From assembly GCA_001563335.1 (NCBI GenBank), contig LRSL01000081.1, positions 1-64,000 on the forward strand: 64,000 nt of DNA, read 5' to 3'. Each line of letters opens with the position of its first letter. Position 1 is the stretch's first letter. The notes under the pieces were generated by a model. The model was not told where the DNA came from, did not search any database, and was given only the letters and a program-made list of their open reading frames with translations. Position numbers and translations under genes: made by a program. This document shows positions 6,395-32,097 of the stretch, piece by piece. The DNA is from Candidatus Thorarchaeota archaeon SMTZ1-45. GTDB lineage: Archaea; Asgardarchaeota; Thorarchaeia; Thorarchaeales; Thorarchaeaceae.

Positions 6395-6463
6395 TGCGGC
6401 AGTGATGAACCTCCAATGTGAGATTATGAACATATGATCGACCTAAGGGGTATCTGAGCCGCA
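6395..6463 (+). ncRNA. Box C/D guide sRNA (candidate)
   Basis: 6-bp terminal stem TGCGGC/GCCGCA; C box GTGATGA 6402-6408; putative D' ATGA 6426-6429; degenerate C' ATGATCG 6434-6440; D box CTGA 6454-6457; intergenic. Confidence 0.8.
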
Positions 6464-16874: not shown

Positions 16875-17366
16875 CTAGGACTCCAATTCTTTCATCAACT
16901 GCCTAATTCTATGCATATATGCCTCTATGTTTGTCCACTGCCCTCCCTGAAAGAAAACACTCTTACAATATTCACAAATCCAAAACTCAGTGTAGTGATT
17001 GAATGTCTGACTTCGAACAAGACCTTCGACACGAGATTTCTCACCATTTCTGATATGAGTCAGTTCTCCGTTGCATTTAGTGCATCGTGACTTGGAGGGG
17101 TCTGCTTCAGGACTGATTCCAAATTCTAAGAATACACTTGCCACTTCTTCATCAACAGTTCCTCGAACAAGCATTACCTCGACATCTGCATCCTCTGCAC
17201 GTCGTGAAAGGATTGCATCAGATGTTAGCAAAACTCTGTTCTGCTCGAGTGCAATTCTTAGCAAATCATCATCATGGAGTTTTGAAGAATAAAATGTGTC
17301 ATGCCCAGTGAGTCGAAGCCATGTAGCAAGTTTCCCCAGCATTGCATCCACAATGAATGTCTTCAT
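16875..17366 (-). CDS. Mut7-C RNase domain protein (DUF82)
   Basis: FIVDAMLGKLA.WLR..G.DT, SRCTKCNG, FWICEYC. Confidence 0.92.
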   Translation of the reverse strand: MKTFIVDAMLGKLATWLRLTGHDTFYSSKLHDDDLLRIALEQNRVLLTSDAILSRRAEDADVEVMLVRGTVDEEVASVFLEFGISPEADPSKSRCTKCNGELTHIRNGEKSRVEGLVRSQTFNHYTEFWICEYCKSVFFQGGQWTNIEAYMHRIRQLMKELES

Positions 17367-18268
17367 TAAGTTTCACCAAAGATAATACGAGCGGCATTTT
17401 TCCACATAACTCTCTCAATCTCATCCTCTCGCACTTGTTTGTAACCCTGCTCTAATAACTCAGAAGGAAGTTGGAGTCTGCTAAAGAACTCCACCCATTT
17501 CTTGAGCGTCATTGCATACTCGAAGAGAGGGAAATCGCTCCCAAACATCATCCGGTTTGGGAACACCTTCAAAGTTTTGGCATCTCCAATCATCAGGTAG
17601 ACCTTCAGGGGAACAGTTGATGCAAACACTTGCCATCCTGAAATATCAACTGAAACATTCGGGTTTTTCGATGCAATCATCAAGGTTTCGTCTTGCCATG
17701 GATAGCCTACATGAGCGAGCACTATCTTCAGATCTGGAAAGTCTGCTGCAACTCTATCAACATAAACCGGTCTTGCATATTTCACATGCTTGTGTCTTGG
17801 TGTAAATCCTTGGTGGATAGTGATTGGGATGTCCAAGTCGACACAAAGTTTGTAGTACGGGTCAAACTCCTTTTCATCTGGATAGAACCCATTTGGAGGG
17901 TACATTTTCCACCCTCTACATCCTTTCTCTTTTACTGCACGTTCTAGCTCCTTTAGACCTGCTTCTCCTCGTCTTGGATCAAGTCCTACAAACGAAATTA
18001 TGTTTGCATCATCTCGCACTTCATTAGCATGCCAATCCGTCTTCTCTGTGAGTGAAAGTGGCATCTTCTGATCAAATCCACTATCGACAGGAAGTACAAC
18101 AGCACTCTCCACTCCACTAGTGGTCATTGCTTGGCGTAGAGTGTCAATTGGTGAATCAAGAACTGGTTCAACTCCTAATCTCTCTGCTGCAATACGACGC
18201 GACTCCAAATCTCTCTCACTAATAATATCCCTAGACCATGTGTGAGTATGTGCATCAATGACTTTCAT
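17366..18268 (-). CDS. Amidohydrolase_2 family protein
   Basis: IDAHTH, KMYP, IHQG, LAHVG.PW, FGSDFP. Confidence 0.9.
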   Translation of the reverse strand: MKVIDAHTHTWSRDIISERDLESRRIAAERLGVEPVLDSPIDTLRQAMTTSGVESAVVLPVDSGFDQKMPLSLTEKTDWHANEVRDDANIISFVGLDPRRGEAGLKELERAVKEKGCRGWKMYPPNGFYPDEKEFDPYYKLCVDLDIPITIHQGFTPRHKHVKYARPVYVDRVAADFPDLKIVLAHVGYPWQDETLMIASKNPNVSVDISGWQVFASTVPLKVYLMIGDAKTLKVFPNRMMFGSDFPLFEYAMTLKKWVEFFSRLQLPSELLEQGYKQVREDEIERVMWKNAARIIFGET

Positions 18269-18279
18269 TCTAACACCTC

Positions 18280-19122
18280 CTATAACTCAGCATGCAATCT
18301 CTGTAAGCTATCAATAACCTCTATTGGTACAGTGACACTTCCAAGGTCTGTGTAATGAACTGTACCATGGTAGTCACTTCCTCCTGTGTGTAGGATATCT
18401 AACCCCTTAATGATCTCTCTCACCTCATCTGATGATCGATGTATTCCCATGGATGTATAATCATAATCCACTTCTATGCCCAAAAGCCCTCCGTTCATCA
18501 GGGTTTCTATTAAAGAGCGAAGGTCTTGAACTTTTACAGTAAGTGGGTGAGCTAGGACAGGAACAGCCCCTGCTGACCTGAGTAAATCAATCGCCTCAAG
18601 TGCCTGCAATCGCTCTTTCCTAACGTATGCAGGTTTGTCATAAGCCAAGTACTTCTGAAATGCCTCATGTGTTGTCTTTACGAATCCTTTCTTGATTAGT
18701 AGTTGCGCAACATGTGGGCGACCAGGGCTTGATACTCCTTCTAGGCTCTCAGAGAGCTCACCCATTGAAACATCAAGTCCTAGCTCATTCAGTTTATGAA
18801 TCATCTTTGGAAGCCTATTGTGTCGTGCTACTCTTAGATACTCCAAACGATCATTGAGTGTCTTAAAGTCAGAAGGCACGAAATAACCCAATATGTGGAC
18901 TTCTTTAGCATCATATTCGGAGCTTATCTCAAGTCCCGGAACTCGAATTAGCTCATCGGATGCATCAGCATCCATGAACTCTTTTACGCCATCAAGCGAA
19001 TCGTGATCTGTAAGTGCGATGCCTCCTAGTTTTATCTCTTCTGCCTTTCTTACTAGTTCTGTGGGCGAATCACTTCCATCAGAAGCTGATGAATGAGTAT
19101 GCAAGTCAGCACGGGCTCTCAC
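18280..19122 (-). CDS. PHP domain phosphoesterase (TrpH/YciV-like)
   Basis: DLHTHSSASDG, LTDHD, GRPH, LAHP, GGSDYHG. Confidence 0.92.
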   Translation of the reverse strand: MRARADLHTHSSASDGSDSPTELVRKAEEIKLGGIALTDHDSLDGVKEFMDADASDELIRVPGLEISSEYDAKEVHILGYFVPSDFKTLNDRLEYLRVARHNRLPKMIHKLNELGLDVSMGELSESLEGVSSPGRPHVAQLLIKKGFVKTTHEAFQKYLAYDKPAYVRKERLQALEAIDLLRSAGAVPVLAHPLTVKVQDLRSLIETLMNGGLLGIEVDYDYTSMGIHRSSDEVREIIKGLDILHTGGSDYHGTVHYTDLGSVTVPIEVIDSLQRLHAEL

Positions 19123-19522
19123 TATGCTCCGCCTCCTGCCTTAGTGTTTCCACAAGCTTTCGGACTTTGTGGCATACTTTTCGTATCTCCTCTCGTGTCA
19201 CAGTAACTCCTGATGGACAGTCCTTATCGATAATGCATTTCCTCCTTCGTGCATCGTATATGATTGGATAATATCTACATCCTTCAGGTCGGTCCTCATA
19301 GATGCGACAAACCTGTGTTTTTGTGTCATAGAAGAAGCAGTTTCCATTGAGATTCCTAAGTTCGCAGAAACCAGCCATCACTCTGACAACGAAATCTTTT
19401 CTATCATAACCCAAGGCTTCAATTCTCTCGACATCTTTTCGAGTCAAGGTCATCTCCGTTTCAGTGCAGCACAGACGAATCTCTTCACAGGATCCATCAT
19501 GATTGCAGACAAAGGGGGTCAA
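19106..19522 (-). CDS. YkgJ family Cys-cluster protein (CxxCxxCC-like)
   Basis: LCC, CFFYD, CRIYEDRPEGCRYYP; TTG start with AGGAG upstream. Confidence 0.88.
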   Translation of the reverse strand: MTPFVCNHDGSCEEIRLCCTETEMTLTRKDVERIEALGYDRKDFVVRVMAGFCELRNLNGNCFFYDTKTQVCRIYEDRPEGCRYYPIIYDARRRKCIIDKDCPSGVTVTREEIRKVCHKVRKLVETLRQEAEHSESPC

Positions 19523-19544
19523 TATGTTTAGTACTCCTAGTGAC

Positions 19545-19619
19545 TCGGTCAGATTGCGGTTTAGTGGGTCATCACGCTGATGAGTTCGTTCACCATCCCT
19601 ACTTCTTCATCATCCCGAC
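19545..19619 (-). ncRNA. Box C/D guide sRNA (candidate)
   Basis: Minus strand reads GUCGGG-AUGAUGA(C)-AGAAGUAGGGAUG-GUGA(D')-spacer-GUGAUGA(C')-CCCACUAAACCGCAAU-CUGA(D)-CCGA; terminal stem UCGG/CCGA; TATA-like element about 25 nt upstream. Confidence 0.82.
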
Positions 19620-19644
19620 AATGAAGAATTAGAGACCTCTAGGC

Positions 19645-19658
19645 TAAATATACTTTCC
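19645..19658 (-). promoter_or_regulatory. BRE/TATA promoter candidate for the sRNA and the ykgJ-like operon
   Basis: Minus strand GGAAAGTATATTTA, about 25 nt upstream of the sRNA 5' end. Confidence 0.55.
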
Positions 19659-19841
19659 AAGAGTGCCATCATCTGGTCCATGATAGACGATGTGAAATAA
19701 GCTGTCCTATGGCTGCTGAATATTGATAGTGCACAATAGGAAAAGATCAATGACTACTCCCAATGTTCTGTTTGAAATCTCTTTTCACTGAAAAGCTTCT
19801 CATGATGGACTATAGATGTGATGAGAAAAAAAGAGGAAGGG

Positions 19842-20075
19842 CTATAGGCCTCTTCGTGCAAGCCGCCGAGATGGTGAGAGTTTCTTTGTTATATCCTCCG
19901 CACTCTCTCCAATAGGGAGTTGCTGAACTGGAAGTTTCTTTCCAGTAATTCGATAATAGGCATGAGCACGAGCTGCATATATGTATGCCATTAGATCATT
20001 TGGTTGAGTAGCTGCACCAAGGAGGAGTGCGCGTCTTTTTCCAAACACATCAAGAAGTCTTTCAATTATCTTCAT
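19842..20075 (-). CDS. Hypothetical small protein (about 77 aa)
   Basis: MKIIERLLDVFG...; fills the gap divergent from ABCE1 and is followed by a T-tract. Confidence 0.45.
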   Translation of the reverse strand: MKIIERLLDVFGKRRALLLGAATQPNDLMAYIYAARAHAYYRITGKKLPVQQLPIGESAEDITKKLSPSRRLARRGL

Positions 20076-20209
20076 AGCAGTTCGTTCCTTAGATACACTC
20101 TCAGAACTACAGAAAAGGATTGTTATCGAGTCATACGCACTCAGCCAAAGTGCTAAATACTCACCAAAAGCATCCTCGGTCAGCTCCTCTACAGAGGTTG
20201 ACACTTTCA

Positions 20210-22030
20210 ATGCGTATTGCAATAGTTGACAAGTTTAGATGTAGACCAAAGGACTGCACTCATGAGTGCCAGAGATTCTGTCCAAGGGTTAGAACTGGTG
20301 ATGAAACAGTTATCTTTCCTGATGGGCAGGACAAACCACCTGTCATAGTGGAATCTCTATGTTCTGGAGAGGCTATCTGTGTCAAGAAGTGTCCATATGA
20401 TGTCATTCGAATAGTAAACCTGCCCGAGGAGTTGGAAACCGATACAAGCCATCGGTATAGTGTCAACGGATTCAAGCTTTTCAGACTTCCAGTACCCAAA
20501 GATAGCCAAGTGTTAGGACTTATTGGACCAAACGGTGTTGGAAAGACAACAGCGATTAGGATACTTGCTGGTGAGATGGTTCCTAATCTAGGAAGGTTTG
20601 ACAATCCCCCAAGTTGGGATGAGATCATTCCAGAATTTCGTGGTTCTGAGCTGCAACCATTCTTTGAGAAGATTCAGGCTGGTACGCTTGTTCCCGTTCT
20701 GAAGCCTCAGAACATCACAGACCTACCTAAGGTAAAAGATCTAGCTGACAGACCCATCAGTGAATTACTAGAGTCCTCCGATTCATCAGGTCGATTGAAA
20801 GAGCTCAAGAATGACATGAGTCTCAATGAGATTTGGGACCGCCCCATAAAGTATCTTAGTGGTGGAGAGCTTCAACGAGTTGCTGTCACAGCAGCTATTG
20901 TCCGTGATGGAAACATCTACTTCTTTGACGAACCAACCGCTTATTTAGACGTTAGAGAGCGTCTTCGGATGGCTCGTGCAATTCGCAAGCTGTCATCTCT
21001 GGGAAAAACAGTAGTTGTTGTTGAGCATGATCTTTCGATCTTAGATTATGTGTCAGATTTGGTCTGCATGTTCTACGGAAATCCTGGTGTCTATGGTATT
21101 GTTTCACATCCACATGGAACCCGTGTTGGTGTAAACATCTTCCTGGACGGGTTCATTCCAGATGAAAATATGCGTTTTCGTGATACAGCAATCTCATTCA
21201 AGGGAATGACTGCTGACGATGAGGAGTACCTCTCACGTGAAGCCATGGTTGAATATGGAAACATGAAGAAGAGCTTCGAGGACTTCACACTTGAGATAAA
21301 GGGCAGTCGTGTTTCAAAGGGTCAGATTGTTGGTATCCTGGGTCCAAATGGAATTGGAAAGACAACGTTTGTAAGAATGCTAGCAGGAGAGTTGGAGCCT
21401 GATGAGGGCGAAGCTCCCAAGAAGACAGTCACCGGTCTTGACTTAAAGATTAGTTACAAACCTCAGTACATTCCAGCTGACTTTGATGGCAGTTTGAGAA
21501 TGTATCTACGAAAAGCTGGAGGCACTACGGTCGACTCTGCAGATTTCAAGACCTCTGTTATTAAGAAACTTGAACTTGAGCATCTCATGGAACATCAGAT
21601 ACCTGACCTTAGTGGAGGAGAGATGCAAAGAGCAGCTATTGCTGCATGTCTAGCTCGTGAGGCTGACATTTACCTCTTTGACGAACCATCTGCCTTTCTT
21701 GACATAGAGCAGAGACTTGCAAGCTCCCGTGCAATTCGTCGAATGGTTAGAACCAGTATGAAGACTGCTTTCATAGTCGAACACTCGATTCTGATGGCGG
21801 ACTATCTTAGTGATAGTCTCGTCGTGTTTGGAGGAGTTCCTGGAAAATCGGGTGTGGCATCCTCTGTCAGAACTCTCAGAAATGGAATGAACATGTTTCT
21901 GAAAGAGATGGGTGTGACATTTAGGAGAGATCCTCAAACTGGACGACCAAGAGTAAACAAAGACGGGTCGAAATTAGACTCGCAGCAGAAAGCATCTGGC
22001 GAGTATTACTACGTTGGAAAGGGCGATTAG
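20210..22030 (+). CDS. rli1: Ribosome recycling ATPase ABCE1/Rli1
   Basis: N-terminal Fe-S Cys pattern (CRPKDC..ECQRFCP), two ABC domains with GPNG.GKT and LSGGE, TFRRDP..GRPRVNK; start MRIAIVD. Confidence 0.96.
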   Translation: MRIAIVDKFRCRPKDCTHECQRFCPRVRTGDETVIFPDGQDKPPVIVESLCSGEAICVKKCPYDVIRIVNLPEELETDTSHRYSVNGFKLFRLPVPKDSQVLGLIGPNGVGKTTAIRILAGEMVPNLGRFDNPPSWDEIIPEFRGSELQPFFEKIQAGTLVPVLKPQNITDLPKVKDLADRPISELLESSDSSGRLKELKNDMSLNEIWDRPIKYLSGGELQRVAVTAAIVRDGNIYFFDEPTAYLDVRERLRMARAIRKLSSLGKTVVVVEHDLSILDYVSDLVCMFYGNPGVYGIVSHPHGTRVGVNIFLDGFIPDENMRFRDTAISFKGMTADDEEYLSREAMVEYGNMKKSFEDFTLEIKGSRVSKGQIVGILGPNGIGKTTFVRMLAGELEPDEGEAPKKTVTGLDLKISYKPQYIPADFDGSLRMYLRKAGGTTVDSADFKTSVIKKLELEHLMEHQIPDLSGGEMQRAAIAACLAREADIYLFDEPSAFLDIEQRLASSRAIRRMVRTSMKTAFIVEHSILMADYLSDSLVVFGGVPGKSGVASSVRTLRNGMNMFLKEMGVTFRRDPQTGRPRVNKDGSKLDSQQKASGEYYYVGKGD

Positions 22031-31584: not shown

Positions 31585-31662
31585 GGGGCCGTAGTCTAGC
31601 CTGGATAAGGCACCAGCCTCCGGAGTTGGTCATCCCCGGTTCAAATCCGGGCGGTCCCGCCA
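31585..31662 (+). tRNA. tRNA-Arg(CCG)
   Basis: Acceptor GGGGCCG/CGGTCCC, anticodon stem CCAGC/GTTGG with loop CT-CCG-GA, T-loop TTCAAAT, encoded CCA. Confidence 0.97.
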
Positions 31663-32019: not shown

Positions 32020-32097
32020 GGGGCCGTAGTCTAGCCTGGATAAGGCACCAGCCTGCGGAGTTGGTCATCCCCGGTTCGAATCCGGGCGGTCCCGCCA
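32020..32097 (+). tRNA. tRNA-Arg(GCG)
   Basis: Same body as the first tRNA; loop CT-GCG-GA, T-loop TTCGAAT, encoded CCA; TATAAG at 31991. Confidence 0.97.

Follow-up and report, generated by a model that had tools for sequence, protein, structure and literature searches.

A very probable dual-guide box C/D sRNA with two predicted 16S rRNA targets, encoded upstream of a ykgJ-PHP gene cluster in Thorarchaeota

The window analysed here comprises 64,000 nucleotides of a Thorarchaeota assembly (119 contigs, 87.7% complete; the window is contig C81). On its minus strand it carries a cluster of four protein genes, and directly ahead of the first of them lies a unit of about 75 nt (19619-19545) with the boxes of a C/D guide RNA. 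Further upstream follow a 126-aa ORF (19842-20222, minus strand) and, divergent from it, the gene for ABCE1/RLI. The 126-aa ORF, lying between ABCE1 and the RNA, has no Pfam or NCBIfam match; most relatives have kept it, and in several genera the TATA-like element ~30 nt before the RNA contains its stop codon. The features of the unit and its surroundings are as follows.

19658-19645, minus strand: BRE-like GGAAAG and TATA-like TATATTTA, ~30 nt upstream of the RNA; predicted promoter
19618-19615, minus strand: 5' arm of the terminal stem, UCGG, pairing with 19548-19545 and covarying
19614, minus strand: bulge nucleotide G
19613-19607, minus strand: C box AUGAUGA, with GATGA invariant in 30 of 30 sequences; counting from G19614, the 3-nt k-turn bulge GAU comes first and GA next
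19606-19594, minus strand: D' guide (13-nt spacer) AGAAGUAGGGAUG, forming 13 bp with 16S CGUCCCUGCUUCU
19593-19590, minus strand: D' box variant GUGA; GUGA, GCGA, GAGA or GUUA in relatives
19589-19574, minus strand: internal hairpin of ACG (19589-19587), a 10-nt loop and CGU (19576-19574), with a covarying closing pair
19589-19573, minus strand: D'-C' connector of 17 nt
19575-19569, minus strand: nominal C' box GUGAUGA
19573-19566, minus strand: C' motif in the corrected register, bulge GAU, then GA (19570-19569) and CCC
19565-19553, minus strand: D guide ACUAAACCGCAAU, which holds UAAACCGCA; AAACCGCA is invariant
19552-19549, minus strand: D box CUGA, invariant in 30 of 30 sequences
19548-19545, minus strand: 3' arm of the terminal stem, CCGA
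from 19544, minus strand: 22-nt linker with a Shine-Dalgarno-like GGAG at 19537-19534, 8 nt after the stem
19106-19522, minus strand: CxxCxxCC/YkgJ-type ORF of 138 aa with a TTG start at 19522 (Pfam PF03692), first gene of the cluster
18280-19122, minus strand: PHP protein (Pfam)
17366-18268, minus strand: Amidohydro_2 protein (Pfam)
16875-17366, minus strand: Mut7-C RNase-domain protein (Pfam)

The first-pass annotation, made from the sequence without searches, had proposed a box C/D sRNA here, and this identity stands, with boxes, stem and spacing that can be read directly in a unit which is conserved, covaries and pairs with same-genus 16S rRNA. The canonical C and D boxes, the GUGA variant of D' and the terminal stem all lie within 19619-19545 in the order it gave. 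The C box fits RUGAUGA near the 5' end, and the D box is CUGA near the 3' end. The terminal motif UCGG / GAU / GA ... CUGA / CCGA has the geometry of a C/D k-turn, with a 4-bp stem and with G.A pairs that lie beyond sequence proof. Both internal boxes are non-canonical, D' being GUGA and C' AUGACCC where the consensus is RUGAUGA, and each spacer has 13 nt instead of 12.

In a MAFFT alignment of 30 sequences, 88.9% of the cells of the proposed pairs are paired, as against 16-38% after a shift of the partners by 1-3 columns. Of the four core pairs of the terminal stem, the outermost appears there as UA in 25, GC in 2 and AU in 1, and the internal hairpin pair adjoining D' as AU in 11, GC in 10 and GU in 7. 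With 50 sequences, in an alignment fitted to a covariance model and thus leaning towards the structure of that model, 8 of 11 pairs change on both sides (44 cells), values that 0 of 500 column shuffles reach. In this larger set the outermost pair of the terminal stem is UA in 25, GC in 8, UG in 4 and AU in 2, the second-outermost is CG in 40 and UA in 7, and the internal pair next to D' is AU in 17, GC in 17 and GU in 13. Of the two stems, RNAalifold returns the terminal one and misses the internal one of 3 bp; in stability the predicted fold does not exceed shuffles (z 0.66), as is usual for the box C/D class. The predicted minimum-energy fold of the naked RNA is dominated by another hairpin, which pairs UCAUC of the loop with GAUGA of C' and was rejected: 71 of 500 shuffles pair as well, and it shows no convincing covariation. 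The loop of the internal hairpin (19577-19586, minus strand) has a fairly conserved CUCAUCA core, complementary to the GAUGA of the C and C' boxes, and this gives the alternative hairpin.

The register of the C' box is the part of the original description that had to be changed. The nominal box at 19575-19569 is present, but the letters that precede its AUGA vary among relatives (GUGAUGA, GCGAUGA, GCUAUGA, GCAAUGA, GUCGUGA); 7 of 30 copies lack the first GA, whereas 28 of 30 retain the second, the two exceptions showing GA to GG and D' to GUUA. The working GA is therefore the second one, 3 nt downstream of the register that had been claimed. Read in this way, the internal motif (D' GUGA, ACG, a 10-nt loop, CGU, bulge GAU, GA and CCC) mirrors the terminal motif, both guide spacers are 13 nt, and the first D' nucleotide, G, pairs with the sixth nucleotide of C', C19567, as GC in 37 of 38 scorable sequences. 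This geometry fits a putative second k-turn, closed by the covarying 3-bp hairpin. Among the 30 sequences the D' spacer is 12, 13 or 14 nt long (8, 17 and 5 copies, respectively), and in six of the eight copies with the 12-nt spacer the C'-to-D distance is also 1 nt shorter.

A 111-nt blastn query matched the unit in 29 of 60 relatives, namely 23 of 27 from the same genus, 6 of 9 from other genera of the family and 0 of 24 from outside the family; in distant relatives the match is confined to the RNA itself (query positions 21-96). Searched with a covariance model built from 30 sequences, 59 of the 86 family genomes, covering 11 of 16 genera, have one copy each and no more. The class sample consisted of these 86 genomes of one family plus a single other genome, in which no copy was found. 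Among 124 non-family Asgard genomes the model gave only two weak matches (E 0.05 and 0.07), both of which were rejected as homologues, being without the layout of guides and boxes. At gathering scores, a search of the whole window with Rfam left the sRNA unmatched and found only two tRNA genes (31585-31659 and 32020-32094, plus strand), and at permissive E-values in 19300-19900 the best C/D models reached 10.6-14.3 bits against thresholds of 37-41. The sRNA is a new family, absent from Rfam, of a well-known class. It has also been lost naturally: in two near-complete genomes of the same genus, G001 and G012, the operon is kept and the sRNA is reduced to a decayed D guide and a D box, with no C box, which indicates that the sRNA is dispensable. 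The remnants (locus L065 in G001 and L064 in G012) sit ~60-90 nt upstream of ykgJ.

Since neither 16S nor 23S rRNA was found in the source assembly, the targets were read on the 16S of same-genus relatives. The search covered the 16S and 23S of one of these (G017) and the 26 tRNAs of the source genome itself, with shuffled guides as controls. The best duplex of the D guide has 10 contiguous Watson-Crick pairs, at positions 2-11 from the D box, with 16S CUUGCGGUUUAAU, the 10-bp partner being 5'-UUGCGGUUUA-3', and places C919 at position 5; 20 of 1000 shuffled guides (2%) score as well. This agrees with what had been proposed, a 16S target in which the D+5 rule selects the C of UUG[C]GG, and the complementary stretch around D+5 that had been named as the thing to look for in the host 16S is present in the relatives. 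The match of the D' guide is better than that of the D guide. All 13 of its positions pair (11 Watson-Crick, 2 G.U) with 16S CGUCCCUGCUUCU, with C1354 at position 5, and 0 of 1000 shuffled guides score as well. The D' target (~E. coli 1382) is new here, the first-pass annotation having named none; its predicted methylation site would be the CC[C] of CGUCCCUG.

Both 16S targets are well supported, and both pairings persist among relatives, the first more strictly than the second. Against the 16S of G017, the D duplex forms in 50 of 50 copies, with 9 bp in 2, 10 bp in 40 and 12 bp in 8, and it always starts at position 2 and selects C919. For D', 42 of 50 copies form a duplex of at least 8 bp; position 5 falls on C1354 in 31 of them and on C1355 in the other 11, which are copies with the 12-nt D' spacer, in which the predicted site moves by one nucleotide. 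In the other 8 copies the D' guide is degenerate or different. In several relatives a U that lies opposite a target G in the window is replaced by C, so that G.U becomes G-C. The guide A opposite the U in GCUUC matches the Thorarchaeal 16S letter, which is C in the seven archaea of the alignment of Dennis et al. 2015 (PMC4644070). All 14 sRNA-bearing genomes with a pattern-retrieved 16S site have the D target sequence, and 10 of 12 with such a site have the exact D' target. The D site varies in 2 of 13 genomes without the RNA and in 0 of 14 genomes with it, a comparison of too few and not independent genomes, in some of which the patterns did not retrieve the 16S site. In the 16S of G012, a U within the D target is replaced by C.

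On the basis of the E. coli sequence in a 16S alignment and of E. coli landmarks, we take the E. coli equivalents to be ~U952 for the D site and ~C1382 for the D' site, within one nucleotide; the site proposed in the first-pass annotation is thus right. In the pan-archaeal numbering of Dennis et al. 2015 (PMC4644070), counted along the same alignment (their Additional file 4), the D target is C935 and the D' target C1369; the count falls correctly on A915, G924, G925, G930, U1367 and U1371, all of them sites given in that paper. The D site is on the 5' strand of helix 30 and the D' site beside the 3' strand of helix 28, and the two, 435 nt apart, yet flank the base of the 16S head domain. Two side observations concern the rRNA loci of relatives. 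The 16S sequences in G014, G035, G083 and G099 are among these loci, and several 16S matches are 2.1-2.4 kb long, a span suggestive of insertions or introns. On contig C205 of G017, the 16S and 23S are ~70 kb apart and hence unlinked.

The TATA on the minus strand that had been noted upstream is present as TATATTTA within 19658-19645, and the BRE/TATA block is conserved in the alignment of relatives. Of the 30 loci, 26 have an A/T octamer (at least 7 of 8) centred at -25 to -33 from the stem, compared with 112 of 600 random positions (19%) in the same loci. The usual distance from TATA to start would presumably put the transcription start 1-4 nt before the RNA. The claim that the sRNA heads the YkgJ-PHP-amidohydrolase-Mut7-C genes, ending about 20 nt before them, also proved right: 22 nt separate the stem from the TTG codon, Pfam confirmed the genes, and the order is kept in 30 of 30 loci. 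In these loci (the window and 29 relatives, from 7 genera) ykgJ and PHP lie directly downstream of the RNA; the cluster reads ykgJ-PHP(-amidohydrolase)-Mut7-C. ABCE1 is upstream in 24 of the 30, the rest being mostly cut by contig ends, and the distance from the RNA to ykgJ varies from ~10 to ~130 nt. As neither a T-run nor a second promoter-like element occurs between the RNA and ykgJ in the window, co-transcription is the simplest reading, and the RNA is probably co-transcribed with ykgJ-PHP-amidohydrolase-Mut7-C. The PHP protein resembles the NCBIfam models for RNase RNM and for 3',5'-nucleoside bisphosphate phosphatase, scoring well below their cut-offs; RNase RNM is a 5'-3' exoribonuclease that acts on rRNA, and the PHP protein and the Mut7-C RNase domain give the cluster an RNA-processing flavour.

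The genome encodes the proteins of a C/D particle. Genes for fibrillarin (PF01269, 290.7 bits) and Nop5 (PF01798, 219.7 bits) adjoin each other on contig C26, and two L7Ae-family genes (PF01248) are on contig C24. A strict box and stem scan of the whole genome gave three candidates, 19619-19545 among them, versus none in the reversed genome. In the search for further C/D sRNAs in the genome, two candidates were rejected: one on contig C69 falls within an open frame of 466 aa, and one on contig C58 proved to be the 5' flank of a conserved coding gene, with "guides" that are not conserved. A looser scan of the genome (37 versus 13 reversed) yielded nothing else convincing, and a scan for half-mers combined with rRNA targets was noise (12 matches versus 11 reversed). 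The Rfam model RF00095, searched against the genome, had a best E-value of 0.07 and did not pick up 19619-19545.

No known organisms are more closely related to eukaryotes than the Asgard archaea, and the box C/D guide RNAs of archaea correspond to the snoRNAs of eukaryotes. Eukaryotic box C/D snoRNAs include a type with an internal D'-C' hairpin, which brings degenerate internal boxes together. The Thorarchaeal RNA likewise has degenerate internal boxes joined by a hairpin; unlike such snoRNAs it is much shorter, has an archaeal-type promoter and symmetric guide spacing, and is not intronic. With archaeal dual-guide C/D sRNAs (Rfam snoPyro_CD RF00095 and the sR families) it shares the order C, D', C', D, the terminal k-turn on a short stem, near-equal guides, the fifth-nucleotide rule, rRNA targets and the L7Ae, Nop5 and fibrillarin genes. 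It differs from them in its 13-nt spacers, in its non-canonical D' and C', in a D'-C' connector of 16-17 nt that forms a covarying hairpin rather than a short k-loop, and in matching no Rfam model at threshold.

Long-range pairs of guides on helices 28 and 30 have been described by Dennis et al. 2015 (PMC4644070), where the D' guide of Nanoarchaeum equitans sR15 targets G930 on the helix 30 strand, 5 nt from Thorarchaeal C935, and the D guide of N. equitans sR17 targets U1371 and Sulfolobus acidocaldarius sR118 targets U1367, two sites that flank Thorarchaeal C1369. Like the Thorarchaeal RNA, sR15 and sR17 join sites far apart in sequence (PMC4644070), but according to that account each of them bridges two strands of one helix, whereas the Thorarchaeal RNA joins a strand of helix 30 with the side of helix 28. 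The methylated nucleotides differ from those of these guides, and there is no sequence homology beyond the constraint of a shared target. In the supplementary files of Dennis et al. 2015 (489 sRNAs; PMC4644070), neither the 8-mer AAACCGCA nor the target label C935 occurs. In the full-text literature, a scope that leaves subscription journals and bioRxiv supplements outside, we found no description of an Asgard C/D sRNA.

With respect to gene context, Breuer et al. 2021 (PMC7994747), quoting Tripp et al. 2017, give archaeal C/D genes at the 5' end of a protein gene as rare (7%) and their contexts as variable. The Thorarchaeal sRNA resembles these 5'-end genes in lying upstream of an ORF with which it is probably co-transcribed, but, unlike the variable contexts reported there, it is tied to one and the same operon in all 30 loci, which come from several genera. 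By that account of archaeal C/D genes, this fixed operon linkage is the least ordinary feature of the finding. The maturation of such 5'-end C/D sRNAs is thought to need the box motifs alone (PMC7994747).

Taken as a whole, these data are best explained by a dual-guide archaeal box C/D sRNA of ~75 nt that guides on 16S rRNA, an explanation we regard as very probable. That the motifs might be a chance cluster or part of a coding region has already been refuted by conservation and covariation and deserves practically no credence. UGAUGA and CUGA are indeed frequent, and C...D pairs joined by a stem of 4 bp or more number 20 in the genome versus 5 in the reversed genome, but chance does not account for a single copy conserved in 59 of 86 genomes with compensatory changes in both stems. 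Coding is ruled out by the 1-nt indels tolerated among relatives; moreover, the in-frame upstream stop of the ykgJ ORF falls in the C box. L7Ae-mediated regulation of mRNA occurs in archaea, and this counts in favour of a leader acting chiefly in cis, in which L7Ae or the particle would bind the k-turns and control translation or stability of the ykgJ operon mRNA, guiding being secondary or absent. That the RNA immediately precedes ykgJ-PHP in all 30 loci, across genera, and that the GGAG comes only 8 nt after the stem would fit such a leader, as would the otherwise variable contexts of archaeal C/D genes and the lower expression of downstream genes upon 5' overlap reported by Breuer et al. 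2021 (PMC7994747). However, a leader leaves unexplained why two guides complementary to universal 16S segments stay fixed while linker and flanks vary, and the distance to ykgJ ranges from ~10 to ~130 nt; we consider it very unlikely.

Quite unlikely, too, is an RNA that works by pairing only, as an assembly chaperone bridging the strands of helix 30 and helix 28 of nascent 16S, with no productive methylation at one or both sites. Its two sites are 435 nt apart and near each other in the secondary structure, the boxes are non-canonical with 13-nt spacers, and the D' site slips by 1 nt among relatives. Against this, the pair at position 5 is Watson-Crick in both duplexes, which start at position 1-2 like those of catalytic guides, and a fibrillarin gene is present.

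For the preferred reading, a dual-guide sRNA directing methylation of 16S rRNA, the following course may be proposed. Transcription would start a few nucleotides before 19619, from the BRE/TATA element. L7Ae would bind two k-turns, the terminal one formed by the C and D boxes with the UCGG/CCGA stem and the internal one formed by D' GUGA and the GA of C', the latter closed by the 3-bp hairpin rather than by an open k-loop, and a Nop5 dimer with two fibrillarins would complete the particle. The D guide would set the C of UUG[C]GG (nt 919; C935; ~E. coli 952) at the fifth pair for 2'-O-methylation, and the D' guide would do the same for the C at ~E. coli 1382 (nt 1354; C1369). Because the two sites flank the base of the head domain despite the 435 nt between them, the particle may also hold them together during assembly, as has been proposed for Nanoarchaeum sR15 and sR17. 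The transcript would then run on into ykgJ-PHP-amidohydrolase-Mut7-C, and the sRNA may be freed by trimming down to the protein-protected body.

A bolder version of this scheme can be put forward, although we hold it to be rather unlikely. The sRNA would be the obligate 5' leader of a conserved RNA-processing module next to ABCE1, whose members are a YkgJ-type metal protein, a PHP protein like RNase AM/pAp phosphatase, a Mut7-C PIN-like RNase and an amidohydrolase. As the methylation particle assembles on the nascent leader, it would release a guide that also chaperones the 16S head domain and would gate expression of the nucleases, coupling it to ribosome assembly. With its hairpin closure, the C'/D' motif would represent an Asgard architecture that stands between the k-loop of archaea and the snoRNAs of eukaryotes.

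The class and the mechanism are textbook, and the gain is an annotation and a model case rather than a new principle. The family is a concrete and testable example, with two predicted 16S methylation sites, natural loss variants in G001 and G012 for comparison, a putative hairpin-closed internal k-turn and an unusually stable link to an operon of nuclease-like genes. The observation and the interpretation of the first-pass annotation both stand, refined in three respects: the register of C', the target of the D' guide and how widely the synteny extends.

The window also contains a second C/D-like RNA, at 6396-6462 on the plus strand, with a 5-bp stem GCGGC/GCCGC, a C box GUGAUGA and a D box CUGA. 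No target for it was found in the 16S or 23S of G017 or in its own genome. As a unit of its own it is conserved in 37 of the 86 family genomes, where it often shares a contig with the first RNA at a distance of ~13 kb. Its D' side varies in length and sequence, and its D guide, CGACCU(A/U)AGGGGUAU, is nearly invariant.
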